A stretch of 64,000 bases of DNA from Steroidobacteraceae bacterium (GCA_035606615.1 DATNFA010000119.1:800-64799); one strand, 5' to 3'; shown: positions 38,474 to 53,428, counted from the first letter of the stretch. Numbers and translations are program-made. The notes: generated from the sequence alone by a model not told the origin.

Positions 38474-38483
38474 ATCCTCAGCC

Positions 38484-38648
38484 TCATACTTCCACCATTT
38501 CAAAGTCCTCTTTGCCTGCGCCGCAGTCCGGGCAACGCCAGGACAGCGGCACGTCATCCCAGCGCGTGCCCGGTGCGATGCCTGATCCGGGATCGCCTTT
38601 TTCTTCTTCGTAGACGTAACCGCAGATCACGCACATGTAAGCTTTCAT
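38484..38648 (-). CDS. Rubredoxin
   Basis: CVICG and CPDCG, 54 aa. Start trimmed to ATG 38648. Confidence 0.95.
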
Positions 38649-38755
38649 GAAGGAGCGCAACGCCGGGCAGGAAGACTGGGGGCCCGGATTATAGGACAAG
38701 CGCGCCGGTCGGCTATGCTTCTCCCGCTTTCAACTGCGCGACGGAGTTTCCGCAC

Positions 38756-40021
38756 GTGTCCCTGTTCAGCGATGCCAGCCGCTACATCCCGGGCGGCGTG
38801 AATTCCCCGGTGCGCGCCTTCCGCGCAGTCGGCGGCGAGCCCATTTTCGTCGAGCGCGCCAGCGGCGCGTACGTGTTCGGCGACGACGGCCGCCGCTATG
38901 TCGACTATGTCGGCTCGTGGGGCCCGATGATCCTCGGGCACGCCTACGAGCCCGTGATCCGCGCCGTGCAGGAGCGCGCGGCGCTCGGCCTGTCATTCGG
39001 CGCGCCGACGCAGATCGAAACGCGGCTGGCGCGCCGCATCTGCGAAGTGATGCCGTCGATCGAGCTGGTGCGCATGGTCAGCTCGGGCACCGAAGCGACC
39101 ATGAGCGCGATCCGGCTGGCGCGCGGCTACACCGGCCGCGACAAGATCGTGAAATTCGAAGGCTGCTATCACGGCCATTCCGATTCGCTGCTGGTCAAGG
39201 CCGGCTCGGGCGCCCTCACCTTTGGCGTGCCGACTTCGCCCGGCGTACCCAAAGAGCTCGCCGCGCAGACGCTGACTCTCTCTTTCAACGACAGCGCGCA
39301 GGTGCAGGAACTGTTCGCCTCGGTCGGTGAGCAGATCGCCTGCATCATCGTCGAGCCGGTTGCCGGCAACATGAACTGCGTGCTGCCCGCGCCGGGATTT
39401 CTCGAAACGCTGCGCACAGTGTGCGACCGGCACGGCAGCGTGCTGATCTTCGACGAAGTGATGACCGGCTTTCGCGTCGCGCTCGGCGGTGCGCAAGCGC
39501 TCTACGGCATCAAGCCGGACCTCAGCACGCTGGGCAAGATCGTCGGCGGCGGCATGCCGGTCGGTGCCTTCGGCGGGCGCCGCGAGATCATGGAGCAGAT
39601 CGCACCGCTCGGCCCGGTGTATCAGGCCGGCACGCTCTCGGGTAATCCGCTGGCGATGGCAGCCGGTGAAACGACGCTGGCAGGTGTCAGCGCGCCGGGC
39701 TTCCACGCCAGTCTCGCAGAAAAGACCACACGCCTGATGGACGGCTTGAACGCCGCGGCGCGCGCCGCGGGCGTCCCGTTCACGACCAATCATGTCTGCG
39801 GCATGTTCGGTCTGTTCTTCAGCGACCGGCCGGTGCGCTCGTTCGCGGACGTGATGGCTTGCGACGTGGAGCGCTTCAAGCGCTTTTTCCACGCGATGCT
39901 TGCGGATGGCATCTACCTGGCGCCGTCGGCGTTCGAAGCGGGATTCATCTCCGCTGCACATTCCGCCGCCGACATCGACGCGACGATCGCTGCTGCGCGA
40001 CGAGCGTTCAGCAGCCTGTAG
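38756..40021 (+). CDS. hemL: Glutamate-1-semialdehyde 2,1-aminomutase
   Basis: [43 protein letters not shown]. Confidence 0.97.
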
Positions 40022-40028
40022 CGCGCCG

Positions 40029-40832
40029 ATGCAGCAGCGCGCACTGTCGAGCGTGCACATGTTCTGGCACGGTCCGCCGCTGTCGCGGATCGAGCGGCTG
40101 TGCATGAGCTCGTTCGTTGCACACGGTCACCCCGTGCATCTGCACGTGTATGAGGAACCGAAGCGCGTTCCTCCCGGCGTCACGCTTCGCGATGCGACCG
40201 CAGTGCTGCCGCGCGCGGAGCTGTTCGTGCATCGCTCGTCCGGCTCGCTTGCCGTGTTCGCCGACTGGTTCCGTTATCGCCTGCTTGCCGAGCACGGCGG
40301 GCTGTGGGTCGATACGGACGTAGTGTGCCTGCGGCCGTTCGAGCACGCGGGGCCCGAGATCTTCGGTTGGCAGGACCAGTCGACGATCAACAATGCCGTG
40401 CTCGGTCTGCCGCAGAACCATGCGCTCGCGCGCTGGATGCTCGCGTGCTGCGAGCAGCCGAATCGTTTCCTGCCGTACGACTCGTTGCGGACGCGTCGAC
40501 GCAAACTCGTGCGCCGGCTGCTCGGCCGCGGTCGCGCCGCGAGCAAATGGGGAGAGACCGGACCTGCAGGGCTCACTGCAGCCGCCAGACATCTCGGCTG
40601 CGCCTCGCAAGCCCAGCCGTTCTGGCACTTCTATCCGATCCACTACCAGAACTGGCACACGGTGTTCGACACGACGCTGCGCGACCGCTCCGGCCTCATC
40701 GACGGCAGCTATGGGCTGCACCTGTGGAACGAGATGGCGCGCCGCCAGACGGGCTTCGACCGCGACGGACGCTTCCCGGACGGCTCGCTGTTCGAGCAAC
40801 TGTGGGCGCGCTACGTCACCAGCGATAGCTGA
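40029..40832 (+). CDS. GT-A glycosyltransferase with DxD motif (GT32 / capsular polysaccharide synthesis-like)
   Basis: FWHGPPLS, ADWFRY...GGLWVDTD, WGETGP, LHLWNE. Start trimmed to ATG 40029. Confidence 0.82.
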   Translation: MQQRALSSVHMFWHGPPLSRIERLCMSSFVAHGHPVHLHVYEEPKRVPPGVTLRDATAVLPRAELFVHRSSGSLAVFADWFRYRLLAEHGGLWVDTDVVCLRPFEHAGPEIFGWQDQSTINNAVLGLPQNHALARWMLACCEQPNRFLPYDSLRTRRRKLVRRLLGRGRAASKWGETGPAGLTAAARHLGCASQAQPFWHFYPIHYQNWHTVFDTTLRDRSGLIDGSYGLHLWNEMARRQTGFDRDGRFPDGSLFEQLWARYVTSDS

Positions 40833-42807
40833 GCGAAAGCGTCGCGCCGGTCAGATCGTAGAAGCTGTCCGGCCGCTTCTCGCTGGGCCCATCGCTCGGC
40901 AGCAGCTTGTCGCGCGCGATCTTGTCGCCGTAGCGCAAGTCGAGACTCAGATCGATGCCCGGGAACAGATTGCGCCACTGCACGCCGGCGCCGTAGTAGT
41001 AGCCGTAAGCCGGCGTCGCAAGGTCGAGGCGCGACGCGCCGAGGAAAACGGACACAGCCAACGGATTGTGGAAACGATAGCGATAGTCGAGTGCGCGCAC
41101 GCTGAACAGCAGATCGCCGTCGATGTCGTCGAACTCGGCCCGCACGCCCAGGTCGCTGCGTTCCGTTACGGCGCGGCGCGCGCCGATCGCGAAGTGCGCA
41201 GCGGCGCCCAGACTTTCGGTGTGCGCGGGGCTGCCATCGAGCCGGATCGCCAACTCCGAGAAGTTGATGCCGGCGTCGACGAACAAGTCCGCCCCGCGCG
41301 GCCGCTCGACGTTTTCGGCCCAGCCATCGGCCACACCCCGCGTCTCCCAGTCGTCGCCGAAGCGCACGAAGCCGGCGATGCGGCTGAAGCTCTCGCCGAA
41401 CACATCGCGCCCGCCCAGCACTTCGGCGCCGACAGTGAAGCCGTACATGCCGCGCGAATAGCTCAGCGCCGCGTCGTAGCCGCGCTCGTAGTCATTGCTG
41501 CCATAGCTCTCGTTGGCAACGGTGCGCGCCTGCAGTTGCAGGTATCCGCCGAATGGCGGATTCCAACCGATGCGCAGCATGTGAGTCTGCGCGCCCACAG
41601 CATCCGCGAACACGCGCCGGTCGGCGCCCCAGTGACCCAGCACATGGCCGTCGTTGGTCATGCCGTCGAGGTAGATATCGTGCACGTACCAGCCGTTCTG
41701 CCACTCGCTGGCTTCGTACGTGAGATCGAAGCGCCGCCACAGGCGCGGGAAAGTGATGCCGACCGACAGCGCCGCATTGCCGAGGCGGTAGTTGCCTTCG
41801 TAGGAGCTGTCTTCGCCGGCGTATTCGAGATACGCAGCGAACGGCGTGCGCCCCGGAAAAATAAAGCGGCTGGTCCACGCGGCGATCTGGTTGCCGAACT
41901 CATCCGTGCCTTCGCTGTTGTCCTTCTGGTGCGGCTTGGTCAGCGCATCGATGAAATCGCCGAACGAGCTGCCGCCGCGCTCGCCGCCGCCGAACTGCAT
42001 CAGGCGATTGGCGCTCAGCGACCAGCCTGGCGTCGGCTCGATGGAGAAGCGCAGGCCGGCGAGGCGCGGTTTGCCCGAGGTGCGGTCGTCCGCGTCGATC
42101 GCCGGGTCCGCGTCGTTGTTGAAGACGATCCGATCCGAGTGTTCCATCTCCGCCAGGAACACCTCGTAGCTGAAGCCCAGGCCCGTGAGCGGGCGATAAT
42201 TCGAGAGCGTCACCGACGGCAGCGTGCGCGCTTCGGTGCTGATGATCATCGCGCTGTCGGTGAACGGCGAGAACCAGTGGTCGCGATAGCCGACATCGAG
42301 CTGCGCGAAATCGAAGCCGGCGCTGAGCATCGAGCCGGTCGCGACGGCATCGTCGGCGTCGCCCGCGCCGCCGAGACTGACGACGAGGTAGTCGCTCGGT
42401 TGCCAGTAGCCCTGCGCGCTCGCCACCCATTCGCTGTCGCTGCTCGCGCCGTGCCGGTTCGGCAGCGTCGTGACTGCGCCGTCGTACGCGACAACCTCAA
42501 CGCTGGCGTGCGTCAGCCCGATCTTGCGCATGTACCCGTCGAGATAACGCCGCACGCGAGTACACAGCGCCGCATCGATGCGACACGCGGCGGGCAAAGC
42601 ATCGAGCACCGTTGCAGCGGCAATCGGCCGCGAGGTGATCGGCTTGTCCGCGAGAATCAGCACGCGCTCGATCTGCCGCTCGATCTCGGGCGACAGGTTC
42701 AGCGGCAGGTAGGGGCTCGCGCCGCGCGCCCAGCCCGCCGGAGTAGCGGCGGCGAAGAGCAAACAGGCGACCAGAGCTCGGGCGGTGGCAGGACGGGACA
42801 CGCTCAC
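40816..42807 (-). CDS. Capsule assembly Wzi-family outer-membrane protein with extra C-terminal beta-rich domain
   Basis: Signal peptide, helical N-segment, LDVGYRDHWFSP, DSAMIIS, QFGG motifs, terminal YRW. GTG 42807 overlaps the GT7 stop (TTG 42810 is the alternative). Confidence 0.8.
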   Translation of the reverse strand: MSVSRPATARALVACLLFAAATPAGWARGASPYLPLNLSPEIERQIERVLILADKPITSRPIAAATVLDALPAACRIDAALCTRVRRYLDGYMRKIGLTHASVEVVAYDGAVTTLPNRHGASSDSEWVASAQGYWQPSDYLVVSLGGAGDADDAVATGSMLSAGFDFAQLDVGYRDHWFSPFTDSAMIISTEARTLPSVTLSNYRPLTGLGFSYEVFLAEMEHSDRIVFNNDADPAIDADDRTSGKPRLAGLRFSIEPTPGWSLSANRLMQFGGGERGGSSFGDFIDALTKPHQKDNSEGTDEFGNQIAAWTSRFIFPGRTPFAAYLEYAGEDSSYEGNYRLGNAALSVGITFPRLWRRFDLTYEASEWQNGWYVHDIYLDGMTNDGHVLGHWGADRRVFADAVGAQTHMLRIGWNPPFGGYLQLQARTVANESYGSNDYERGYDAALSYSRGMYGFTVGAEVLGGRDVFGESFSRIAGFVRFGDDWETRGVADGWAENVERPRGADLFVDAGINFSELAIRLDGSPAHTESLGAAAHFAIGARRAVTERSDLGVRAEFDDIDGDLLFSVRALDYRYRFHNPLAVSVFLGASRLDLATPAYGYYYGAGVQWRNLFPGIDLSLDLRYGDKIARDKLLPSDGPSEKRPDSFYDLTGATLSLSYRW

Positions 42808-43697
42808 CAACGCACGCGGATCTTTTCGTAGTCGGCGTGCTCGACGTGCTCGAGCACCTGGTACTTCACGGTGCTGAGCCCGTCCTCGGCGGGATCCGCC
42901 AGGCCGCGCAGCAGCAGGCTGCGGCGCCGGCGGTTCTGCTTCACATAGGAGCGCAACGGCGCGCCCTGAGCTTCAGGATTCGGCAGGTCGCGGAACGTGC
43001 CTTCGGCGTCGAAGTAGCACAAATAGCCGGCGAGCAGCAGCCGGAAAAAGAAGTCGTCGTCTTCCTTGCCCCAGCCCCAGTATTCGTTTGAGAAGCCATT
43101 GGCCGCGAACGCCTGGTCCTTGCGAATCGAGACCGCGCCCGAGAAGTAATGGCAATTGCGCTGCCGGGTATCGACCGCGCCATCGCCGCTGAGCAGTCGC
43201 GTGACGAGGCGCAGCGGTTGCGACGGGCACGCGTAGTTGGCGAGCACCGGCACGGCATCGACATCGTGCAGGCAGTAGTAGTCGGTGGCGTCGGCAGTCA
43301 GCTGCATGCCGATGTTGAGCAGACGCCCGCGATTGAACGGCAGCCCGTCCTCCTGCTCGACGACCACGATCCGCCGGCGCACGCCCTGCTCGCGCAGCGT
43401 TGCAGTGAGCGCCGGCACGAGTTGCGCGAGATGCTGCGCGCGGTCGCGATAGGGAACGACGATCGTGAGACGGCGATCGGCGGTGAATGACAACGGGCGG
43501 AACACGCGGCCGGCCAGCAGCGTGCGAGCCATGCCGGGAATCAGTTTCCAGTTCGCGATGCTGACGGGCGCGTAGCGGCCCTCGACGCTCAGTCCCTGAA
43601 GCGGATCCGTGCGCAAGCGCTTGCTCGGCAACCAGCGGTTCAGCCATCGCGGACCCCGCGACGGCTCGACCGGGTCGAGAAAATACGGGACGGACAA
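42804..43697 (-). CDS. GT7-family (beta-1,4-galactosyltransferase-like) glycosyltransferase
   Basis: VVPYRDR, FNRGRLLNIG, HDVD, YFSGAVS, NGFSNEYWGWGKEDDD. TTG start has AGGAG 7 nt upstream. Confidence 0.85.
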   Translation of the reverse strand: MSVPYFLDPVEPSRGPRWLNRWLPSKRLRTDPLQGLSVEGRYAPVSIANWKLIPGMARTLLAGRVFRPLSFTADRRLTIVVPYRDRAQHLAQLVPALTATLREQGVRRRIVVVEQEDGLPFNRGRLLNIGMQLTADATDYYCLHDVDAVPVLANYACPSQPLRLVTRLLSGDGAVDTRQRNCHYFSGAVSIRKDQAFAANGFSNEYWGWGKEDDDFFFRLLLAGYLCYFDAEGTFRDLPNPEAQGAPLRSYVKQNRRRRSLLLRGLADPAEDGLSTVKYQVLEHVEHADYEKIRVRW

Positions 43698-43874
43698 GAT
43701 TGCACTCCTGCGGGTCGGCCTACAGTTTAACGATTCGTTCCGCCGGCCGTCACTCCCGGCCCTTCAGGTCCGCGGCCGACCAGAAAACCAGGTATGCAAC
43801 GCAGGCTTTCGCCAGTGCGCATAACGCGGCATGCTCGCGGCCGGTTGCACCGGAACGGAGAGCCCCAGGCGTAG

Positions 43875-44684
43875 ATGCGCACCTGCCTGATCGTAACGAC
43901 ATACAACTGGCCCGAGGCCCTGCACCTCACGCTCGCGAGCGTGGCGAGGCAGACGCAGCGGCCGGACGAAATAATCGTCGCCGACGACGGCTCGGGCCCC
44001 GCCACGCGAGCCATGATCGACCAGTGGCGCGCAGCCGGCCTGCCGCTGGAGCACGTCTGGCAGGAGGATCAGGGCTTTCGCCTCGCTCGCTCCCGCAACC
44101 GCGCGATCGCGGCTACGCCCGCCGAGTACATCCTGCTCGTCGACGGTGACATGGTCCTGCATCCGCACTTCGTCGCGGACCACGTGCGCTGCGCGCGACC
44201 GGACTGCTTCATCCAGGGCGCGCGCCCGCAGCTCTCTGCCACAACCACTGCCCAGCTGTTGCAAGGCAGCGGCCCGACCGACCTGGGCCCGCTCACGCCG
44301 GGATTGCACCGACGCGCCTACGCAATGCGCAGCCCGCTGCTGAGCCGCGTTTTCTCCCGGACCAAGGGCACGCTCGGCGGCGTGCAGGGCTGCAACCAAT
44401 CCTTCTGGCGCAGTCACGCGCTTCAGGTGAACGGCTACGACGAGCGTTTCACCGCGTGGGGACCGGAAGATCGCGAATTCGTCGCCCGCCTCCTGCACGT
44501 CGGGCTGCGGCGCCGCTACGTGCGTCACATGGCAATCGCCTTTCATCTGCATCACGCATCGCGTGCGCCGACCGCGCCGAATCCGTTCGATCGGCTGCTG
44601 GACGAGACGCTCGCCAGCGGTACGACGTGGACCGAGCAAGGCCTCGCCGCCCACCTGGACACGACCCGCGCTCGTCACGCGTGA
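43875..44684 (+). CDS. Glycosyltransferase family 2
   Basis: LIVTTYN, IIVADDGS, RSRNRAI, VDGD, NGYDERFTAWGPED. Confidence 0.9.
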   Translation: MRTCLIVTTYNWPEALHLTLASVARQTQRPDEIIVADDGSGPATRAMIDQWRAAGLPLEHVWQEDQGFRLARSRNRAIAATPAEYILLVDGDMVLHPHFVADHVRCARPDCFIQGARPQLSATTTAQLLQGSGPTDLGPLTPGLHRRAYAMRSPLLSRVFSRTKGTLGGVQGCNQSFWRSHALQVNGYDERFTAWGPEDREFVARLLHVGLRRRYVRHMAIAFHLHHASRAPTAPNPFDRLLDETLASGTTWTEQGLAAHLDTTRARHA

Positions 44685-45676
44685 GGTAGCTCGAGCAAAG
44701 CGGCTTCAAGGCGGCCCGTGAAACCGCTCTTGTTGTCGGCAAACCAGGCGCGCGCGCGTGCCCCGAGCTGACTGCACTCCGCATCGCTCATGGCGAGGGT
44801 GCGCTCGATCGCCGCCTCCAACCCTGCCTCATCGAACTGATGCGTCGTCGCGAGCCGCTGCGTGCCAGTCGCGCGATACGGCACGAGCACGCCGCGGTCC
44901 GCAGTGACCAGCTCGTTCATCGGACGGGCATCGACGGTGATCGTCACCGCCCCGACGCCCATCGCTTCCGCGATGTAATGCCCCCAGCCTTCGGTCAGCG
45001 ACAGGCAGAGGTGGAACACGCTTTCGTTCTGCAGCTGGCGCAATTCCTGGTCGGACATGTAGCCGACGCGCGCCTCGATGTTCGGCGCGACCGGCGGCAC
45101 CGGCGCGCCGTCCTTGTGTTGCACGAGGATCAGGCGCGGCCATTCCGGATGCCGCTGCCAGACCTGGACCAGGCGATCCGTGCCCTTCATCGTGCTCTTG
45201 CCGGCCAGATGGAAATAAGTGCGCTGCTTCGCGATCCCGCTTTCGTAGCGATCGTCGCTGTCGAAGCCGATGTAGGTGGTGTTGCAGCCGAGCGCGCGGA
45301 ACAGCTCGCGTGTGTAGGTGGTCTTCGCCCAGACGTTGTCGACCTCCGCCAGGAATCGCCGATCGTGCCGGTCGAACCACTCGGGATTCGGTACGGCGAC
45401 GTTGATAGGCGCCGTCGACAGGTACTGCAGCCAGACGTGCTCGAGCATGAGGTTGACATCGGCACGCGACGTCTGTGCCTTGCCACCCGCCCCGCCCCAC
45501 GCCAGCCGCGCGCGCGTCGCGAACTGCGCCAGCGGCGAGCGACGGCGCCGCGCCTGCACCGCGTCGATGATCGTGACGTCTACCTGATGACCCGAAGCCT
45601 GCAGCGCGCTGGCGAGCAGATCGATATCCCGCGCCAGGCCGACGCCGTTGGACTTGCCGATGATGTTGACGCGCAC
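44675..45676 (-). CDS. GT-B fold glycosyltransferase (GT4 / Glycos_transf_1-like)
   Basis: VPNPEW, HLAGKSTMKGT, TEGWGHYIAEA (E-x7-E), PMNELV. Start uncertain (GTG 45676 or 45688). Confidence 0.8.
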   Translation of the reverse strand: MRVNIIGKSNGVGLARDIDLLASALQASGHQVDVTIIDAVQARRRRSPLAQFATRARLAWGGAGGKAQTSRADVNLMLEHVWLQYLSTAPINVAVPNPEWFDRHDRRFLAEVDNVWAKTTYTRELFRALGCNTTYIGFDSDDRYESGIAKQRTYFHLAGKSTMKGTDRLVQVWQRHPEWPRLILVQHKDGAPVPPVAPNIEARVGYMSDQELRQLQNESVFHLCLSLTEGWGHYIAEAMGVGAVTITVDARPMNELVTADRGVLVPYRATGTQRLATTHQFDEAGLEAAIERTLAMSDAECSQLGARARAWFADNKSGFTGRLEAALLELPHA

Positions 45677-45762
45677 CGTGCGCCGCACGGAGGCAGCATC
45701 CGGAAGTGGCGGCGGTTGAAGAGAGGCGCTGCACATACGAGCGCGGCGCATTGTACAGCCGT

Positions 45763-46569
45763 TCAGCCAGCTGTATCCGCCGGCGCTCCTGGCGCTCGGG
45801 CCGCCGCGGCATCGCTGTGCGTCAACGACCGCCGCCGCCTGCGAGAAACCTTGGCCCAAGCGCGGGCGAATGCGAGCCCGCGGCGGCTCCCGACCATCCT
45901 GACCAGCCCTGGGCTGATGCGCTCCCTGGAGAACACGTGCACGTTCCGCCCGTTGCTCGACAGCTGCATGCCCAGGCGCTCGGCGGCGATCTGCAGCGCG
46001 CGCGCCGAGAAAAAGCTGATGTGCTGACCGCCTTCAGGCGCGTAGTACCACCATTCGCCCGGACGATTGCGCACTGCCGGCAGCTGCTCGGTGCCGATCA
46101 GCACCGTCGGAGCAAGCTGCGCGAGCTCCTGCAGGACGGTCATGGGGTCGACGATGTGCTCGATGACCTCGATGCTGGTCGCGAGATCGAAGCGCTCGCC
46201 CGCCCGCGCGTCGAAGCCCACTGCGAAGATGTTGTCGCAATATTTGTCCTGCCGGTAGAAATCGTAGCCGCGGTCGCGCATGAGCCGGACGAACAGGCCG
46301 GCGCCGCCGCCGAAGTCGATGCAGCGGCGCGCCTGCGGCAGCCCGAGATCGATCAGCGTGCCGACCAGGTCCGCGAACCGCAGGTTGCGGACGACGATGC
46401 CGGTATCGGCCGCTGCAATCGGCAGCTCGTAGGCTTGCTCCAGCCAGGTCGGCTGCTCGACGAACACGAACCCGCAGCGCGTGCAGCGCAGATAACGTGC
46501 AGTGAAGGTCTGCAGAACCTGCTGCTCGCCGAAATGCTCCGTCGCCGATTCGCATATTTTGCAAAGCAT
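45763..46569 (-). CDS. Class I SAM-dependent methyltransferase with N-terminal Cys pairs
   Basis: CKIC...CTRC, IDFGGGAG motif I, IEVIEH, GQHISFF; type seen in polysaccharide loci. Confidence 0.85.
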   Translation of the reverse strand: MLCKICESATEHFGEQQVLQTFTARYLRCTRCGFVFVEQPTWLEQAYELPIAAADTGIVVRNLRFADLVGTLIDLGLPQARRCIDFGGGAGLFVRLMRDRGYDFYRQDKYCDNIFAVGFDARAGERFDLATSIEVIEHIVDPMTVLQELAQLAPTVLIGTEQLPAVRNRPGEWWYYAPEGGQHISFFSARALQIAAERLGMQLSSNGRNVHVFSRERISPGLVRMVGSRRGLAFARAWAKVSRRRRRSLTHSDAAAARAPGAPADTAG

Positions 46570-46599
46570 TGCGACATTGGAGCAGATCGGCCTGCGAAC

Positions 46600-47031
46600 T
46601 CAAGGTCCGCCCCGCCCACCGTCCAGGCGCGATTGCAGGGAGGCGCCGTCATGTCGCCACTTGCCGGGCCCGCCGATCGGCCGACTGCCCTCGGGCGCGA
46701 GCCGGCCATGGCGGATGAGCCGCGCCTGAATGCCGCCGCGGGTGCGGCCGTGCGCCTGCGCCAGCTGCGCGAGCGGCCGGCCGCCATCGAAGGCAGACAG
46801 CAGCTGACGATCCTCCTCTTCCGTCCACGGCTTACCAGCGTTGTTCGATCCCGCATCCTGCCCGCGAGTGCGCCGACGACTCGCAGCTTCGAGCGACCTC
46901 ACCGCGCAATACAGCGCGCGGATCACGTCCGGCGATTGGTAAGGACTATCGGCTGCAAACAGCTCGCCGGTGAGCGGATTGACCCCGTTGGCGAGCGCCG
47001 ACACGATCGCGTGTGCTCTGGCTTCTTCCAT
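46600..47031 (-). CDS. Hypothetical protein with Myb/SANT-like helix-turn-helix segment
   Basis: NGVNPLTGE N-segment and AGKPWTEEEDRQL...HGRTRGGIQARL; GGAG upstream of the ATG. Confidence 0.7.
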   Translation of the reverse strand: MEEARAHAIVSALANGVNPLTGELFAADSPYQSPDVIRALYCAVRSLEAASRRRTRGQDAGSNNAGKPWTEEEDRQLLSAFDGGRPLAQLAQAHGRTRGGIQARLIRHGRLAPEGSRPIGGPGKWRHDGASLQSRLDGGRGGP

Positions 47032-47101
47032 GACAGATCTCCCTATGTGCGCGTCTTCAGCATGCGCAACGATTGCGCGGTCCCACGCAGTTTAGGCAGG
47101 T

Positions 47102-48055
47102 GTGGTACTGTCGCCGCCGCGAGAAATCCGGCCTTTCATCGAAAAATTCGCAGCCAACTCGCCGTACGTGCGCACTTTCGCCCTGTTCGTCGCTCTGCTC
47201 GCCTGCTCGCTGCTCCTCGCAGCGGCCCTCACCTATCCGGCCTGGCTGCTCGTCGGCACGGTTTCGGTCGAGCCCGTGCATCGCGTGATGAACCGGCTCG
47301 CGATGCTGATCGCGGTCGTCGGCCTCGTGTTGCTCACGCGCAGGCTCGGACTATCGAATCGCGCGGCGCTCGGCTACCGGCTGCCGCGCGCGGAATTCCT
47401 GCGTCAGCTCGGCATCGGCTGGGCTGCCGGTATCGGCCTGATGTTGCCGCTGGTCGCATTGCTGCTCGCGCTCGACGTGCGGCAGATCAAGCCGGGGCTT
47501 GATGGCGAACTGCTGCCGCTGGTCGGGCAAGGTCTGCTCTCCGGTCTGGTCGTCGCGTTCATCGAAGAGACCTTCTTCCGCGGGATCCTGTTCACCGCCG
47601 TGGCGCGCACCTCGGGCATCCGCGCCGCTATCGTCGCGCCGAGCGTGTTGTACGCGGCACTGCATTTCCTTGGCGGCAAGCTGCGCGTGCCGCCGGAAGA
47701 AGTGTCATGGGTACACGGCTTTCAGGTGCTGAGCCGGCTGTTCGAGCGCTACGCGCAGCCGCTGACCTTCATCGATTCTTTTCTGGCTCTGGTCGCGCTC
47801 GGCATCGTGCTCGCGCTGGTGCGGCTGCGGACCGGCGCGATCGCCGCGTGCATCGGCCTGCACGCCGCCGGTGTTTGCATGATTTTCATTCTGCGCGACG
47901 CGACGACGATCAACGGCAACGCGAAGCTGGCGGGAATCGTCGGCACGTATGACGGCGTGATCGGTTGGGCAGCGTTCGTGTGGCTCGCTGCGATCGCCAT
48001 CGCATTTACGTTTTATCAGTTGTCGGAATCGGAGTCGTCGTCGCGCGATTCCTGA
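47102..48055 (+). CDS. CPBP/Abi-family intramembrane glutamic endopeptidase
   Basis: EETFFRG, YAALHF, IGLHAAG motifs; multiple TM helices. Start uncertain. Confidence 0.88.
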   Translation: MVLSPPREIRPFIEKFAANSPYVRTFALFVALLACSLLLAAALTYPAWLLVGTVSVEPVHRVMNRLAMLIAVVGLVLLTRRLGLSNRAALGYRLPRAEFLRQLGIGWAAGIGLMLPLVALLLALDVRQIKPGLDGELLPLVGQGLLSGLVVAFIEETFFRGILFTAVARTSGIRAAIVAPSVLYAALHFLGGKLRVPPEEVSWVHGFQVLSRLFERYAQPLTFIDSFLALVALGIVLALVRLRTGAIAACIGLHAAGVCMIFILRDATTINGNAKLAGIVGTYDGVIGWAAFVWLAAIAIAFTFYQLSESESSSRDS

Positions 48056-48636
48056 ATGTCCAGCCGCGACTGCAGCCATTGCAGCCGTTCCGGTCCGTCT
48101 GACAGCTCGAGCAGCTCCTGTCGCTCGACCGGGGCGAGCGGCAGGATTTCGGCGAGCCGCATCCCGACCCAGGTTGCATCTTCGTAGGCGGGCGTGACTT
48201 CGCCATAGGCCGGCCCGATCTGCTCCAGCGCGCGCCGCAGCAACTCGGCGAGCACCGCGCACTGCGGCGGCACTTCAGCCCGGACCTCGTCGTCGAGCCA
48301 CTCGACCTGGGCCACGTTCAGACCGTCGCTCTCCTGATGGACGTGCACGATGCGAAAGCGCCGTTCGCCGCGCGCAGTGATGCCGAGCAACCCGTCCTCG
48401 AGCTGCTCGAAATCGACGATGCGCGCCAGAGTGCCGACCGCCACGGTCTGCGCCGCCCCGCCCGCTTCGCGCCCTGCGACGATGAGCGCGACCCCGAAAC
48501 CGGAATCCTCGCGCATGCAGCGGCTGATCATGTCGAGATAACGCGGCTCGAAAATCCGCAAGCGCAGCGGCCCGCCCGGAAACAGCACGGTGTTCAGCGG
48601 GAATAGCGGAAGACTTGCGTGGGTCGCGCTACGCAT
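48016..48636 (-). CDS. Stand-alone Lon N-terminal substrate-binding domain protein
   Basis: PLFPLNTVLFPG, IFEPRY, VGTLARI; no AAA or protease domain. Confidence 0.88.
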   Translation of the reverse strand: MRSATHASLPLFPLNTVLFPGGPLRLRIFEPRYLDMISRCMREDSGFGVALIVAGREAGGAAQTVAVGTLARIVDFEQLEDGLLGITARGERRFRIVHVHQESDGLNVAQVEWLDDEVRAEVPPQCAVLAELLRRALEQIGPAYGEVTPAYEDATWVGMRLAEILPLAPVERQELLELSDGPERLQWLQSRLDIQESRDDDSDSDN

Positions 48637-48655
48637 GGATATGGGGCAGTCGAGC

Positions 48656-50026
48656 TTACTTCTTGGCGAGCCGCTCCAGGAGTTTCTTGTGAATGCCGCC
48701 GAAACCGCCGTTCGACATGATGAGCACGTGATCGCCGGCGCTCACTGTCGCGCCCAGCGTCGCGACCAGCTGATCGAGATCTTTTGCGACCGCTGCGCGC
48801 TCGCCCAGCGCCGCAACCGAGCCGGCGACGTCCCAGGTCACGTTCGGGCCCTGGTACAGCCAGACGCGGTCGGCGCGCTCCAGCGCCTTCGCCATCGCTT
48901 CGCGATGCGTGCCGAGCTTCATCGTGTTCGAGCGCGGCTCGAGCACGGCGATCAGTCGTGAGCTGCCGATGCGCCGGCGCAGCCCGTCGATCGTCACCTC
49001 GATCGCGGTCGGATGATGCGCAAAGTCGTCGTAGACGGTGACGCCGCCGACCACACCGCGCACTTCGAGCCTGCGGCGCACCCCGCCGAACTCCTTGAGC
49101 GCGGCAATCGAAGTCTCCAGGGCGACGCCCGCGTGACGCGCGGCGAGCACTGCGGCCAGCGCGTTCTCCGCATTGTGCCGTCCGAGCATCTGCCACTGCG
49201 CTTCGACGATGCGCCGATTGCCTTGCATGATCGCGAACGACGTGTAGTCGCCGCCAGGCGGCGCAGCGGCATACCAATTCGTGTCGCCGCTGACGGTGCC
49301 GGCAAAACGCTCGACTGGCGTCCAGCAGCCCATGTCGATCACGCGCATCACGTTCGCATCGCCCGCGTTGGCGACGACCTGGCCGTTGCGCGGCACCATG
49401 CGCAACAGCTGGTGGAACTGCCACTGGATCGAAGCGACGTCAGGATAGATATCGGCGTGGTCGTGCTCGAGATTGTTCAGCACTGCCGTGCGCGGCCGGT
49501 AGTGAACGAACTTGGCGCGCTTGTCGAAGAACGCCGTGTCGTACTCGTCCGCTTCGACGACGAAGTACCGGCCGCCGCCGAGCCGCGCCGTGACGTTGAA
49601 ATTGCCGGGGACCCCGCCGATCAGAAATCCCGGTTCGAGGCCGGCGTACTCGAGGATCCACGCGAGAATGCTCGAAGTCGTGGTCTTGCCGTGCGTGCCG
49701 GCGACCGCGAGCGTCCAGCGGCCGGCGAGCACGTGCCGCGCGAGCCATTCCGGGCCGGACGTATAGGGAATGCCGCTTTCCAGCAGCGCCTCCACCAGCG
49801 CGTTGCCGCGGCTCATCACGTTGCCGACGACGACGACGTCCGGCCGCAGCTGCAACTGTTGCGGGTCGTAGCCTTCGATCAGCTCGATGCCGAGCGCGGC
49901 GAGCTGGTCGGACATCGGCGGATAGACGTTCTGGTCCGAGCCGGTGACTCGATGGCCGGTCGCGCGCGCCAGCGCGGCGATGCCTCCCATGAACGTGCCG
50001 CAGATCCCGAGAATGTGAACGTGCAT
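48656..50026 (-). CDS. mpl: Murein peptide ligase
   Basis: HILGICGTFMGG, GTHGKTTTSS, EADEYDTAFFDKR, DDFAHHPTA, EPRSNTM. Start trimmed to ATG 50026. Confidence 0.96.
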   Translation of the reverse strand: MHVHILGICGTFMGGIAALARATGHRVTGSDQNVYPPMSDQLAALGIELIEGYDPQQLQLRPDVVVVGNVMSRGNALVEALLESGIPYTSGPEWLARHVLAGRWTLAVAGTHGKTTTSSILAWILEYAGLEPGFLIGGVPGNFNVTARLGGGRYFVVEADEYDTAFFDKRAKFVHYRPRTAVLNNLEHDHADIYPDVASIQWQFHQLLRMVPRNGQVVANAGDANVMRVIDMGCWTPVERFAGTVSGDTNWYAAAPPGGDYTSFAIMQGNRRIVEAQWQMLGRHNAENALAAVLAARHAGVALETSIAALKEFGGVRRRLEVRGVVGGVTVYDDFAHHPTAIEVTIDGLRRRIGSSRLIAVLEPRSNTMKLGTHREAMAKALERADRVWLYQGPNVTWDVAGSVAALGERAAVAKDLDQLVATLGATVSAGDHVLIMSNGGFGGIHKKLLERLAKK

Positions 50027-51198: not shown

Positions 51199-52032
51199 TC
51201 AGCGTCGCCGCGCGCGCGTCGTCTTGCGCTTTGCTGTGCGCTTGGCGGTCTTGCGACGGACCGGTCGCTTCGCGGCTGCCTTGCGTGCGGGCTTGCGGCG
51301 GACTTTCGACTTCTTCGCAGCGGCCTTCTTCTTGCGCGCGACGGGTCGCGTCTTGCGCGTCGTCACCTTCATCTTCTCCGCCGGCACTGGCTTCGCCAGC
51401 GCCGCTGCTTCCATGCGCTCGAAAACTTCTTCCAGCGCGCCCTCGCCCGCCACGACCCGCAGCAACCCGAGCTTGGAGTAGTGCTCGATCAACGGCTGTG
51501 TCTGCGTCTGGTAGACCTCGAGGCGCTTCGCGACGACGTCTTCCTTGTCGTCGGGACGCTGGTACAACTGCGCACCGTCGCGCGAGCACGTACTCACACC
51601 CGGCGGCAGCGAGTGAATGTTGTACACGGTGCCGCATGTCGGACACGTGCGTCGTCCTGCGAGCCGCTTCATCAACGTCTCGCGGCGCACGTCGAGCTGC
51701 AACACTGCATCGATCGGCTGGCCGAGCTCCTGCAGCAGCGTGTTGAGGGAATTCGCCTGTTCAGCGTTGCGGGGAAAGCCGTCGAGGATGAAGCCGCCTG
51801 CGGCATCCGGCTTGCGCAACCGATCGCGGATCAGGCCGAGCACGATGTCGTCCGAGACCAGCTGTCCGGAGTCCATGACCGACTTCGCCTTGCGGCCGAG
51901 CTCGGTCCCGCGTGCGACAGCATCGCGCAGCAGATCGCCGGACGAGACTTGCGGCACGCCGTACTTGGCCTGCAGGCGTTGCGCCTGCGTTCCCTTGCCC
52001 GATCCGGGCGCCCCCAGCAACACGATCCGCAT
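51199..52032 (-). CDS. adk: Adenylate kinase with Zn-type LID and Lys/Arg-rich C-terminal tail
   Basis: LLGAPGSGKGT, LDGFPR, RRTCPTC...CSRD, QRPDD. Start trimmed to ATG 52032. Confidence 0.95.
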   Translation of the reverse strand: MRIVLLGAPGSGKGTQAQRLQAKYGVPQVSSGDLLRDAVARGTELGRKAKSVMDSGQLVSDDIVLGLIRDRLRKPDAAGGFILDGFPRNAEQANSLNTLLQELGQPIDAVLQLDVRRETLMKRLAGRRTCPTCGTVYNIHSLPPGVSTCSRDGAQLYQRPDDKEDVVAKRLEVYQTQTQPLIEHYSKLGLLRVVAGEGALEEVFERMEAAALAKPVPAEKMKVTTRKTRPVARKKKAAAKKSKVRRKPARKAAAKRPVRRKTAKRTAKRKTTRARRR

Positions 52033-52156
52033 AGTCGATCCGGCCCTCCCCAAAGGAGGCGCTACCCTACAGAAAAGAGGGACCGCTGGGTACTGGGCAA
52101 GCCCTTCCTTGATATCCTTCCGCGCCCCGAATCTGGCCAAGAACAAGGTCCCAGCC

Positions 52157-53428
52157 ATGCCCTCCGCCAAGCCCCGCAACGCCTTCTATGCCCAGTCCGG
52201 CGGCGTCACCGCCGTGATCAATGCCTCTGCCTGCGGCGTCATCGAGACTTGCCGCAAGCACAAGAATCGCATCGCCAAGGTGTATGCAGGCCGGCACGGC
52301 ATCGTCGGCGCACTGACCGAGGACCTGATCGACACCAGCAAGGAATCCGCGGCGGCGATCCGCGCCCTGCGCCACACGCCGTCCGGCGCGTTCGGCTCGG
52401 CGCGCTACAAGCTGAAAAAATTCGAGGACAACCCGGCGCAGTACGAGCGGCTGATCGAGGTCTTCAAGGCGCACGACATCGGCTATTTCTTCTACAACGG
52501 CGGCGGCGATTCCGCCGACACCTGCCTGAAGGTCGCGCAGCTCGCCGACCAGCGCGGCGTCGCGATCCAGGCGGTGCACGTGCCGAAGACGGTCGACAAC
52601 GATCTGCCGATCACCGACTGCTGCCCGGGTTTCGGCTCGGTCGCAAAATATGTCGCAGTGTCGATTCGCGAAGCGGGCTTCGACGTGGCCTCGATGGCCA
52701 AGACCTCGACCAAGGTGTTCATCATGGAAGTGATGGGCCGGCACGCCGGCTGGATCGCCGCGGCCGGCGGTCTCGCTGCAGAAAAAACCGGCGATGCGCC
52801 GCACATCATCCTGTTTCCGGAAATCAAGTTCGACGAAGAGAAGTTCTGCGCGCGCGTCAAGGAGTGCGTCGAAAAGTACGGCTATTGCGCGGTCGTGGTT
52901 TCCGAAGGCGTGAAGAACGCCGAAGGCAAATTTCTTTCGGACGCGGGCCTGCGCGATGCATTCGGGCATGCACAGCTCGGCGGCGTCGCCCCGGTGATCG
53001 CGCAGCTGGTGAAGTCGAAGCTCAACTACAAATACCACTGGGCGGTTGCCGATTATCTGCAGCGCGCCGCCCGCCACATCGCTTCGAAGGTGGACGTCGA
53101 GCAGGCATATGCCGTCGGTAAGGCCGCGGTCGAGCTCGCGCTCAAAGGCCAGAACTCCGTGATGCCGACGATCGTTCGCACTGCAGACAAACCGTACAAG
53201 TGGAAGATCGGCGTCGCGCCGCTGGCCCAGGTAGCGAACCAGGAAAAGATGCTGCCGCGTGACTACATCAGCGAAGACGGCATGCACATCACCACCAAGG
53301 CGCGCCGCTACCTGCTGCCCCTCATCAAGGGCGAGGACTACCCGCCGTACAAGGACGGTCTGCCGCAGTACGTGACGCTGAAGAACGCCCCGGTGCGCAA
53401 GAAGCTCGCCGAACCCTTTGTGGTATAG
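52157..53428 (+). CDS. 6-phosphofructokinase, probably pyrophosphate-dependent
   Basis: AQSGGVTAVIN, NGGGDS, PKTVDND, MGRHAGW. Start trimmed to ATG 52157. Confidence 0.92.
   Translation: MPSAKPRNAFYAQSGGVTAVINASACGVIETCRKHKNRIAKVYAGRHGIVGALTEDLIDTSKESAAAIRALRHTPSGAFGSARYKLKKFEDNPAQYERLIEVFKAHDIGYFFYNGGGDSADTCLKVAQLADQRGVAIQAVHVPKTVDNDLPITDCCPGFGSVAKYVAVSIREAGFDVASMAKTSTKVFIMEVMGRHAGWIAAAGGLAAEKTGDAPHIILFPEIKFDEEKFCARVKECVEKYGYCAVVVSEGVKNAEGKFLSDAGLRDAFGHAQLGGVAPVIAQLVKSKLNYKYHWAVADYLQRAARHIASKVDVEQAYAVGKAAVELALKGQNSVMPTIVRTADKPYKWKIGVAPLAQVANQEKMLPRDYISEDGMHITTKARRYLLPLIKGEDYPPYKDGLPQYVTLKNAPVRKKLAEPFVV

Follow-up and report, generated by a model that had tools for sequence, protein, structure and literature searches.

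A Wzi-glycosyltransferase block beside hemL in a Steroidobacteraceae genome reads as one allele of a serotype-like cassette, possibly of outer-core type

What purpose is served by a group of surface-glycan genes that has no export machinery beside it? Such a block occupies positions 40029-48055 of the window, the 64,000-nucleotide stretch of a Steroidobacteraceae genome (GCA_035606615.1) analyzed here. An earlier note on this DNA listed a GT32-like enzyme, a Wzi-like outer-membrane protein, GT7, GT2 and GT-B glycosyltransferases and a SAM methyltransferase, in the orientation +,-,-,+,-,-, followed by a small HTH-like protein (orf143) and a CPBP protease, between hemL and a LonN-mpl group, and proposed them as the best candidate for a new system in the window. 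The inventory and the orientation were both confirmed: third-position GC favored one coding frame per gene in the window (66% GC), and the frames in the block match independent JGI gene calls (Table 1). No foreign-DNA signature is apparent in the base composition of the window. The reported lack of export machinery in the block was likewise upheld by searches with Pfam and further profiles, which detected in 40029-48055 no wzx/wzy/wzc/wza, wzm/wzt or nucleotide-sugar genes and no initiating transferase, flippase, polymerase, PCP, OPX or ABC exporter. The same searches found no phosphatase in the block, and the Wzi-family gene thus stands without the wza-wzb-wzc module of group 1 capsules.

Table 1. 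Features of the block and its flanks, in window coordinates.
Feature	Coordinates	Strand	Evidence
hemL, glutamate-1-semialdehyde aminomutase	38756..40021	+	Aminotran_3 233.8 bits
GT32-like DXD glycosyltransferase, 267 aa	40029..40832	+	Gb3_synth 36.2, Gly_transf_sug 27.2, Caps_synth 25.0 bits
Wzi-family outer-membrane protein, 663 aa	40816..42807	-	Caps_assemb_Wzi PF14052 97.8 bits
C-terminal c12 domain of Wzi-like protein, residues ~500-663	40816..41313	-	AF2 and Foldseek
GT7 (beta-1,4-galactosyltransferase-like), 297 aa	42804..43697	-	Glyco_transf_7N 71.1 and 7C 49.2 bits
GT2 glycosyltransferase, 269 aa	43875..44684	+	Glycos_transf_2 69.6 bits, plus 7C
Putative GT-B (GT4-like), 337 aa by JGI call	44675..45688	-	Glycos_transf_1 23.8 bits, cut-off 26.4
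SAM-dependent methyltransferase	45763..46569	-	Methyltransf_23 73.6 bits
orf143, small conserved protein	46600..47031	-	No Pfam family at E<=0.01
CPBP (Rce1-like) intramembrane protease	47102..48055	+	PF02517 56.3 bits
Lon N-terminal-domain protein and mpl (murein peptide ligase)	48016..50026	-	TIGR01081 mpl 669 bits; JGI calls

The order hemL, cassette, orf143-CPBP-LonN-mpl is found throughout the genus Steroidobacter. We compared the 17 loci in which both hemL and CPBP flank the slot; its content ranges from 3.4 to 10.2 kb, with one soluble, cytoplasmic glycan-modifying enzyme besides Wzi in the smallest alleles and five or six in the largest. On the left, hemL is conserved (78-95% identical across the genus); on the right, the conserved CPBP gene, which probably lies outside the glycan function, is followed by the housekeeping genes LonN and mpl, also conserved. 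The small protein orf143 (46-88% conservation) is in every case transcribed away from CPBP, toward the cassette, and in the window allele its gene heads an orf143->MT->GT-B transcription unit; a faint Myb/SANT-like motif appears in it at a laxer threshold (E 0.04). Every examined Steroidobacter locus that shows the slot flanks holds a Wzi-like gene together with glycosyltransferases, which argues against a chance assembly as far as the grouping is concerned. Co-occurrence in relatives proved to be partial: the Wzi-like gene, present in 31 of 41 relatives, is the sole constant member of the cassette, whereas GT32, GT7, GT2 and GT-B vary between species and the methyltransferase is missing from all loci compared other than the window allele. 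Where this one has Methyltransf_23, an FkbM-type or Methyltransf_24 enzyme is found in other alleles.

The Wzi tree contains three starred clades, each of which matches a cassette content: GT32 or GT25 with GT7 and GT2 in clade I, GT-B only in clade II, and GT7, WbsX, ABC, MT and PhyH in clade III, whose ABC gene is of the PglK/MsbA exporter type. The tree of hemL and mpl is incongruent with it. The nearest flank relatives of the window, loci L091 and L022 (flank identity 90-94%), carry clade II cassettes, and their Wzi proteins are only 46-54% identical to that of the window. Since the Wzi clades follow the cassette content and conflict with the phylogeny of the flanks, Wzi and the glycosyltransferases have been swapped as one serotype-like cassette. 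The comparison shows that a Wzi type is passed on, and exchanged, along with its enzyme set, via recombination in the conserved flanks; the linkage between Wzi and glycosyltransferases proposed earlier thus holds, in that the two co-vary and move as a unit. We regard the block as one allele, carried by a soil Steroidobacter, of a hypervariable, serotype-like cassette in a fixed chromosomal slot.

All cassette enzymes lack membrane segments on inspection of their sequences. The GT32-like enzyme contains a DXD motif (WVDTDV), and its Gb3_synth, Gly_transf_sug and Caps_synth matches all exceed their Pfam cut-offs, the first two barely; the GT32 match is weak, so "GT32-like" is the safe label. Its gene starts 8 nt after the hemL stop, so that the two are probably on one transcript. 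It runs toward the Wzi-like gene, and the two overlap by 17 nt at their 3' ends; this tail-to-tail pair, including the overlap, is kept across genera, with a GT25 enzyme in the GT32 position in some species. The GT7 enzyme, with HDVDAV (DVD) and WGWGKEDDD motifs, matched beta4GalT7 (E 6.7e-32) and beta4GalT1 in the PDB; its gene is the first of a GT7->Wzi operon, in which the GT7 stop overlaps the Wzi start (translational coupling). The GT2 gene is divergent from GT7, and its product is matched by a chondroitin synthase K4CP domain (E 3e-18). The GT-B gene gives a weak family signal, below the Glycos_transf_1 cut-off, and no PDB relative of its product was found; its homologs adjoin Wzi in clade II cassettes. 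The methyltransferase, which we take for an O-methyltransferase, carries an N-terminal CxxC...CxxC and the motif IDFGGGAG.

Joint exchange could also arise with no functional coupling: phages or predators may impose diversifying selection on a surface-exposed outer-membrane protein and on glycan genes unrelated to it, and these would then hitch-hike at a shared recombination hot spot. The entire interval between the conserved flanks is indeed replaced at once, the transcription units are of mixed orientation, and the glycosyltransferase partner families are mutually unrelated (profile comparison of GT-B, c28 and c21, probability <10%). However, each independent context (the hemL slot, the OPX locus, a lon-folD slot and waa-type regions) places at least one glycosyltransferase next to the Wzi-like gene. 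This constancy, together with the GT7/Wzi overlap and the retention of the GT32/Wzi overlap across genera, makes a mere hot spot improbable.

The Wzi-like protein is the single PF14052 match in the whole genome, covering residues 151-394 only, at a score well over the cut-off of 30.1 bits. Its AF2 model (pLDDT 79, pTM 0.82) comprises a signal peptide, a helical plug at about residues 40-90 and Wzi-type barrel strands at 96-483, with Wzi itself (2YNK) as the best PDB match in Foldseek (E 2.9e-13, target-normalized TM 0.73); the predicted fold is that of 2YNK, a helical plug with an 18-stranded-type barrel. The C-terminal c12 domain (pLDDT 87) has eight long, transmembrane-length strands and a short hairpin and matched Ail, OmpX, OmpA-TM and NspA in Foldseek (TM 0.55-0.62). 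It is predicted to be an OmpX/Ail-like 8-stranded beta-barrel, a likeness at the level of fold only. No Pfam family was found for c12, and a standalone member gave OMP_b-brl at E 0.058. Such standalone members occur in Woeseiaceae, Oleiphilaceae and Psychrosphaera as a gene of ~180 aa with its own signal peptide, directly downstream of a 470-500-aa Wzi; the unnamed barrel family amounts to 273 representative clusters. The novelty of the locus is narrow: a Wzi fused to an OmpX-like barrel that is a separate gene in other lineages.

The locus would be autonomous, and a system not yet described, if this fusion served its own cassette as an outer-membrane translocon or as a device that displays the oligosaccharide made there, bypassing the Lpt and OPX routes. 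The fusion, like the strict pairing of Wzi and c12 genes, does constitute an unnamed, narrowly distributed architecture, and minimal modules of Wzi, c12 and one glycosyltransferase are found among pure housekeeping genes (lon...folD). Yet no inner-membrane or periplasmic component is conserved alongside, the modeled fold is that of an ordinary Wzi with a plugged barrel, and the genome is rich in standard pathways; we consider autonomy the least probable of the readings weighed here.

Genome-wide, those pathways supply an initiating transferase, a flippase, a polymerase, a PCP and an OPX outside the block; they include three OPX, three Polysacc_synt_3 (over cut-off), three Bac_transf and two Wzy_C genes (on contigs C20 and C50), as well as Wzz/GNVR. 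The OPX and PCP genes of the pgi-OPX-Wzz-pseudaminic-acid locus lie on contig C143, outside the window block, in a contiguous DegT-dehydrogenase-epimerase-pgi-OPX-Wzz-PseB/C/F/I arrangement that lacks a Wzi-GT32 pair. With two initiating transferases, a GT2, wzx-/wzy-like membrane proteins, a PCP and an OPX, the C143 locus looks self-sufficient from its gene content. The large OPX of this genome ends in a hydrophobic helix-like tail, so that it may need no porin partner. The picture differs in other Steroidobacteraceae genera, where at least 16 loci place the Wzi-like gene within three genes of an OPX of ~950 aa, typically in the order OPX-Wzi paralog-c28-Wzi-GT32-pgi-DegT-epimerase-sugar dehydrogenase. 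The Wzi-GT32 pair there sits between pgi and the OPX gene of a capsule-type locus, and a shorter Wzi paralog also adjoins the large Poly_export+SLBB OPX. The possibility that the block is the edge of a standard locus is therefore half right: the pair lies at the edge of the OPX locus in sister genera, but here that locus is on other contigs and without the pair.

These arrangements bring in our second choice, that Wzi and the glycosyltransferases are a detached accessory part of an ordinary Wzx/Wzy-plus-OPX capsule or EPS pathway. The enzymes would then build or decorate an undecaprenyl-linked repeat unit that the C143 or C20/C50 machinery flips, polymerizes and exports, and Wzi would tether the polymer as in E. 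coli K30. Besides the sister-genus loci and the pair missing from the contiguous locus of this genome, a second Wzi-like copy beside the OPX of genome G021 and the ABC flippase-like gene of clade III alleles would fit, as would the frequent synteny of Wzi-type barrels with OPX genes of all classes (PMC9603273) and the A. baumannii wzi, a gene outside the K locus whose types go with the first capsule sugar (PMC8571296). However, the C143 locus appears complete, and six or seven genomes keep the Wzi cassette with no large OPX orthologue, although short OPX proteins are present there. Moreover, the simpler ligand for Wzi is the product of the neighboring enzymes, with which the Wzi type co-varies. 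Outside Steroidobacterales the neighbors are of LPS-core type: in Oleiphilaceae, Wzi-c12 is surrounded by GT4s, a GT9 heptosyltransferase and HldE, and a GT25 adjoins the Wzi gene in Psychrosphaera. On this balance, a split locus is somewhat less probable than the outer-core reading that we prefer.

The two Wzy_C-domain genes also bear on another carrier, namely protein O-glycosylation via a PglL-type enzyme or a free glycolipid, with the Wzi fusion as glycoprotein or receptor. This option had been named in the earlier note, and the short-glycan logic of methylated GT7/GT2-type products would suit it. Against it, none of the 17 alleles links an oligosaccharyltransferase, initiating transferase or flippase, except for the clade III ABC gene, and no precedent is known that connects Wzi to glycoproteins; we judge it unlikely.

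Together, the variable gene set, the kinship with OPX loci, the abundance of machinery elsewhere and the precedent of the A. baumannii OC locus do not sustain the proposal of an undescribed system, and the locus is a variant of ordinary surface-polysaccharide genetics. The accompanying idea, that carrier and export route are encoded elsewhere and the Wzi variant acts on the product, fits the gene content seen here. Most likely, by analogy, the cassette enzymes finish a lipid-linked oligosaccharide that is exported in trans. Our preferred reading of the whole, which we hold tentatively, is an LPS/LOS outer-core-type locus with the linked Wzi as cognate lectin. Because the cassette brings neither an initiating transferase nor a flippase or polymerase, the acceptor would already be lipid-linked; at the cytoplasmic face, the enzymes would extend it with the outer sugars specific to the strain and cap it with a methyl group. 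That acceptor would most likely be lipid A-inner core, giving an LOS/LPS outer core. Flipping by MsbA and outward transport by Lpt would make a dedicated exporter unneeded. The Wzi-OmpX-like fusion could act as the cognate outer-membrane lectin for the strain-specific glycan, its putative recognition organizing or retaining surface polysaccharide.

Several features point toward an outer core. The inner-core locus is small (waaA, an lpxL-like gene, a Kdo kinase, a single GT9, one GT2 and one more transferase), which leaves outer-core enzymes unaccounted for. In sister alleles the place of GT32 is taken by GT25, which Pfam names "LPS biosynthesis protein" and whose characterized bacterial members act on LOS. 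The cassette also has the OC-type pattern of glycosyltransferases and modifying enzymes only, in alternative forms between housekeeping flanks and with no repeat-unit processing genes. The recognized core genes (waaL, GT9, GT25, kinases) are absent from the window allele; distant Wzi-c12 loci adjoin GT9/HldE or GT25.

Other observations run counter to an outer core. The inner-core genes lie ~36 kb from the block on the same contig, and waaL is missing from the block. In sister genera, and in its second copy in G021, the Wzi-like gene keeps capsule-type company, beside a large OPX and nucleotide-sugar genes. The clade III ABC exporter suits an undecaprenyl-linked oligosaccharide better than lipid A-core, and a Pfam family named "capsular polysaccharide synthesis" is among the matches of the GT32-like enzyme. 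Other alleles, not this one, supply the GT25 evidence, and the two GT25s share only 31% identity.

Among known systems, the LOS loci in Neisseria and Haemophilus, such as lgt and lic2 (GT25), assemble a variable oligosaccharide straight on lipid A-core with no flippase or polymerase, and are not known to contain an outer-membrane protein gene. The cassette resembles them in having a small number of soluble enzymes of GT-A and GT-B type, with GT25 in sister alleles, but the window allele has GT32 instead of GT25 and adds a Wzi-like gene. The sister-genus Wzi-like gene and its paralog, beside a large OPX, recall the OPX-paired barrels (Wzi, GfcD/YjbH and the myxobacterial WzpX/S/B; PMC9603273), whereas the Wzi-like gene here is unlinked from every OPX. 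With Wzi of E. coli K30/Klebsiella, the lectin of group 1 capsules (2YNK, PMC3791409), the protein shares the PF14052 match and the predicted plug and 18-stranded-type barrel. It differs from 2YNK in its 15% identity and in ~160 extra C-terminal residues that form the predicted second, OmpX-like 8-stranded barrel, and its gene is not adjacent to wza-wzb-wzc; its lectin role is putative. The wzi of A. baumannii falls into several deep sequence types that cut across the clonal phylogeny, the type being associated with the first sugar (PMC8571296). The Steroidobacter gene is similar in lying apart from a capsule locus and in having deep, glycan-associated types off the clonal phylogeny; however, wzi of A. 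baumannii stands alone and its variation is independent of the K locus, whereas Steroidobacter Wzi is linked to, and exchanged with, glycosyltransferases. The A. baumannii OC locus (OCL1-3) is an 8.8 kb slot, between two housekeeping genes unconnected with polysaccharides, that holds only sugar-synthesis and glycosyltransfer genes, in several alternative forms, with no repeat unit processing genes and no waaL (PMC3628348). The cassette is alike in its size (about 8-9 kb), its housekeeping flanks, its glycosyltransfer genes with neither processing genes nor waaL, and its alternative forms. The OC locus contains no wzi, which lies between lysS and cysD, whereas a Wzi-like gene is the constant, co-varying core of the Steroidobacter cassette, for which, unlike the OC locus, we infer the link to LOS. 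The closest precedent for the cassette is this glycosyltransferase-only OC locus of A. baumannii taken together with its unlinked wzi.

The window has a GC content of 66% and contains many spurious ORFs, and gene frames were picked by third-codon-position GC, with one frame per gene. The frames chosen in this way match the gene calls made independently by JGI on metagenome contigs of identical sequence, although the 80-aa minimum of our filter missed a 54-aa rubredoxin gene called by JGI between gumN and hemL. From the coordinates of the block at 40029-48055, transcription is laid out as hemL-GT32 forward, Wzi-GT7 reverse, GT2 forward, GT-B-methyltransferase-orf143 reverse and CPBP forward. 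The stop of the GT7 gene overlaps the start of the Wzi gene, and the GT32 and Wzi genes converge with a 17-nt overlap.

Genes of the block and its surroundings
Feature	Position	Strand	Remark
Rubredoxin	~38480-38700	opposite hemL	54 aa
hemL	38756-40021	+	left of block
GT32-like DXD enzyme	40029-40832	+	267 aa
Wzi-family protein	40816-42807	-	663 aa
GT7 enzyme	42804-43697	-	
GT2	43875-44684	+	
GT-B enzyme	44675-45688	-	assignable only weakly
Methyltransferase	45763-46569	-	Methyltransf_23
orf143	46600-47031	-	conserved 143-aa ORF without family
CPBP protease	47102-48055	+	
LonN, mpl, rnd, adk, pfk			in succession, right of CPBP
adk ORF	51199-52179	-	326 aa from first possible start
PPi-type phosphofructokinase	51617-53428	+	long ORF

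Catalytic motifs are readable in the translated cassette enzymes, and none of these enzymes has a membrane segment. Within the block there is no initiating transferase, flippase, polymerase, PCP, outer-membrane polysaccharide exporter (OPX), ABC exporter or nucleotide-sugar gene. The gene inventory without export machinery described in an earlier note is therefore borne out, and the block does not amount to a complete Wzy-, ABC- or synthase-dependent system. A promoter and terminator scan gave no signal over shuffled expectation. The composition check revealed no GC or skew anomaly, hence no trace of recent foreign origin; with composition this flat, the block is no mobile island either. Further right, the adk ORF is 277 aa by the JGI call, also far above the usual length, and overlaps the phosphofructokinase ORF.

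Homologues of the Wzi-like protein place the window's genome in Steroidobacter (Steroidobacteraceae, Gammaproteobacteria), with soil metagenomes as the source. We sampled 20 kb around the Wzi-like homologue in 18 Steroidobacter genomes, together with 62 further loci from a species-representative collection, mapped the window's proteins on these loci and clustered all neighbouring ORFs. The left flank (tkt-phosphoesterase-gumN-hemL) and the right flank (orf143-CPBP-LonN-mpl-rnd-adk-pfk) are conserved in the genus, and every genus locus that shows them has a Wzi-like gene in between; two further genus loci, that of G006 and the second of two copies in G021, are in other contexts. The interval between the flanks measures 3.4 to 10.2 kb, and all of its content except the Wzi-like gene varies. 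The variable content comprises a GT32 or a GT25 'LPS biosynthesis' enzyme beside hemL, GT7, GT2 and GT-B enzymes in varying combinations, a WbsX-type transferase, the family-less protein clusters c43 and c64, an FkbM or Methyltransf_24 methyltransferase and a PhyH dioxygenase; some alleles include a PglK/MsbA-type ABC exporter. The window's own methyltransferase was found in none of the other loci compared. This comparison shows that the four-family combination singled out in the earlier note is one allele only, and a fixed set of four glycosyltransferase families is ruled out for the cassette. A single family as conserved Wzi partner was also rejected, as profile-profile comparison found no relationship of GT-B to another neighbouring cluster, c28, or of either to the remaining ones; c21, c39, c110 and c125 were mere generic GT4 relatives. 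In several long-read MAGs (G007:C19, G032:C1, which is L030/L071, L087 and L089) the Wzi-like gene and its neighbours occur in many frame-shifted pieces or with an in-frame stop (in G032, a single TAG), which looks more like faulty assembly than like pseudogenes. No annotated context was on record for the S. denitrificans Wzi-like protein (P0068), and a search for literature on Steroidobacter surface glycans returned nothing.

The maximum-likelihood tree of the Wzi-like proteins contains three well-supported clades that coincide with cassette content: clade I, which includes the window, with GT32 or GT25 plus GT7 and GT2, with or without extras; clade II with GT-B only; and clade III with GT7, WbsX and ABC genes and others. 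The tree of the concatenated flanking proteins hemL and mpl is incongruent with it. Clade II cassettes are present in both of the loci nearest to the window by flank (L091 and L022, 90-94% identity), whose Wzi-like proteins are just 46-54% identical to the window's, whereas species with flanks 78-80% identical carry clade I cassettes and Wzi-like proteins 62-70% identical; in the flank tree, moreover, clade I loci L017-L019 are nested among clade II loci L023-L025. The match between Wzi clade and cassette, taken with this incongruence, shows that the Wzi-like gene and the enzymes are replaced together between conserved flanks. Serotype loci of the O, K and OC types behave in this way. Joint replacement speaks against an assembly by chance and in favour of a functional link.

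The GT7 enzyme recurs in most clade I and clade III cassettes of the genus and matches animal beta4GalT7 and beta4GalT1 structures (E 1e-32 to 1e-25); it is bacterial, yet unusually close to these animal enzymes (E 7e-32; DVD and WGWGKEDDD motifs). Searches of Pfam and NCBIfam gave no family for orf143, c28, c43 or the C-terminal domain of the Wzi-like protein, here called c12. Like CPBP, orf143 is a conserved flank gene; because it always faces into the cassette and, in several alleles, is the first gene of the operon, it may have a regulatory role.

What is most original about the locus is the fusion within the Wzi-like protein. Pfam matches only residues 151-394. In an AF2 model (34 sequences, pLDDT 79, pTM 0.82), a signal peptide is followed by a bundle of helices at about residues 40-90 and by a large barrel that reaches residue 483; after a linker modelled with low confidence (488-499) come eight more long strands at 507-662. 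The best PDB match, covering the first ~500 residues, is Wzi itself (2YNK; E 2.9e-13, TM 0.73 normalised to Wzi, 15% identity). Some lineages, among them Woeseiaceae, Oleiphilaceae and Psychrosphaera, have the protein in two parts, with a ~180-aa c12 gene directly after a Wzi of 470-500 aa. Standalone c12 has its own signal peptide, aligns to residues ~505-663 of the window's protein with 32-51% identity and shares the conserved motifs TPAYGYY and ARD..LP.DP with it. A model of the domain by itself gives, with good confidence (pLDDT 87), an 8-stranded barrel resembling Ail, OmpX, OmpA-TM and NspA (TM 0.55-0.62). Given the TM-score of the Wzi part, the low-confidence linker and the existence of the split form, we judge a single 26-stranded barrel unlikely. 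A profile search of 1.84 billion representatives recovered only 273 c12 clusters, most of them standalone proteins of 175-200 aa, with about ten fusions of 650-690 aa among the best 150 matches. That the two barrels are fused, or strictly adjacent when split, suggests that they act together, and they may form a physical complex. By Rosetta-stone logic, an unnamed 8-stranded barrel family fused to or directly downstream of Wzi hints at an outer-membrane complex of two barrels, which to our knowledge nobody has studied. In five loci of Woeseiaceae-like genomes (L052, L065, L071, L074, L079), Wzi, c12 and one GT4 lie between tig-clpP-clpX-lon and folD/PPIase, with no further glycan genes within 10 kb.

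One explanation for the block is that Wzi and the enzymes are a split part of an OPX-type capsule or EPS pathway. This accords with canonical Wzi biology (PMC3791409), with the cataloguing of Wzi-type barrels adjoining OPX genes (PMC9603273), with the ABC flippase-like gene of clade III alleles and with the company of the Wzi-like gene in sister genera. In other Steroidobacteraceae genera the typical order is OPX-shorter Wzi paralogue-c28-Wzi-like-GT32-pgi-DegT aminotransferase-epimerase-nucleotide-sugar dehydrogenase-rnhA, the OPX being ~950 aa with Poly_export and SLBB repeats, and the Wzi-like gene lies at most three genes from a large OPX in at least 16 loci; within Steroidobacter, the second Wzi-like copy of G021 lies beside its own OPX. 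The shorter paralogue (~480-510 aa, about 25% identical, without the c12 domain) adjoins the large OPX, besides the fused Wzi-like gene, in the sister-genus loci L038-L040, L043, L049, L062 and L088.

In the window's own genome, the orthologous OPX is on contig C143, 57% identical to the cluster representative and directly beside pgi. It is followed by a Wzz/GNVR PCP, PseB/PseC/PseF/PseI-type genes, amidotransferase/HisF and a GT2, and further on by two multi-pass membrane proteins without assignment, two Bac_transf initiating transferases, CapD and ugd. C143 and contig C164, whose end carries DegT, dehydrogenase, epimerase and the beginning of pgi, overlap at their ends by 439 nt with 96.8% identity, so the two are neighbours broken inside pgi, probably through strain heterogeneity. 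Together, C143:20-58.7 kb and C164 make up a large variable polysaccharide locus, with an OPX of 999 aa, PMM and a second short OPX. The earlier note had named, among the findings that would count against it, that the block is the margin of a standard locus broken up by rearrangement, and this is in large part the case: sister genera pair Wzi-GT32 with the OPX-pgi locus, and the present genome has that arrangement minus the pair. Standard export machinery is plentiful outside the block, including two short OPX genes, Polysacc_synt_3 flippases on C20, C50 and C95, and Wzy_C genes on C20 and C50. The large OPX occurs in 20 of 26 good genus genomes; those without one retain the cassette and have short OPX proteins, so that presence and absence in these 26 did not discriminate whether the cassette depends on the large OPX. 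Because the genes downstream of OPX are hypervariable too, a few genomes were not enough to assess their co-variation with the cassette. We consider the capsule explanation somewhat less likely than the outer-core reading that follows.

The reading that we favour, though still short of an even chance, is that the cassette enzymes build the outer core of LPS or LOS. The block consists of nothing but transferases, sister alleles have GT25 in alternation with GT32, and the genome has a small inner-core locus on the same contig ~36 kb away, with waaA, an lpxL-like acyltransferase, a Kdo kinase, a GT2, one more transferase and the genome's single GT9. This cluster (C119:80.4-87.7 kb, ~16-23 kb past the window's right end) comprises a Kdo/WaaP-family kinase, the GT9 heptosyltransferase, a Glyphos_transf-like protein and DUF6165. 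Outside Steroidobacterales, too, the Wzi gene has neighbours of LPS type: GT4s, a GT9 heptosyltransferase and HldE surround it in Oleiphilaceae, and in Psychrosphaera it accompanies GT25, a PF05159 protein and a GT4 between mutM and radC-coaBC-slmA, which in E. coli are the surroundings of the waa cluster. Orthology of the Steroidobacter and Psychrosphaera GT25 enzymes is not supported (31% identity across half the length). Since Wzi type tracks the adjacent enzymes, the Wzi ligand would most simply be their product. A bolder proposal, which we consider improbable, is that cassette and two-barrel protein form a matched glycan-plus-receptor unit, in which the protein recognises the strain's own LPS-core-type oligosaccharide and the pair is co-exchanged for compatibility; if so, Wzi proteins would help to organise the outer leaflet independently of capsules exported through OPX, and the c12 barrel would be a new obligate Wzi partner.

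Together, these observations make it probable that the pathway is an ordinary one completed in trans, whether as outer core or as split capsule. The reading in the earlier note thus holds in part: the locus is real and functionally linked, and its carrier and export are encoded elsewhere; its billing as a new system is unsupported, and as such it carries little weight, the logic being familiar from variable surface-polysaccharide loci with export supplied in trans. It is a serotype-like glycosyltransferase cassette, of OC-locus or capsule-accessory type, with a captured, putatively cognate Wzi fused to an unnamed small barrel. For Steroidobacteraceae, which are widespread in soil and sediment, this is the first map of such a locus, and it is usable for typing MAGs. 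A Wzi physically linked to and co-exchanged with glycosyltransferases is also evidence from natural genetic variation for a match between the specificity of Wzi and one particular glycan, a match still in question for Klebsiella and Acinetobacter. The nearest described locus type, which also supports the outer-core reading, is the OC locus of A. baumannii, 8.8 kb of transferases only, flanked by ilvE and aspS (PMC3628348).
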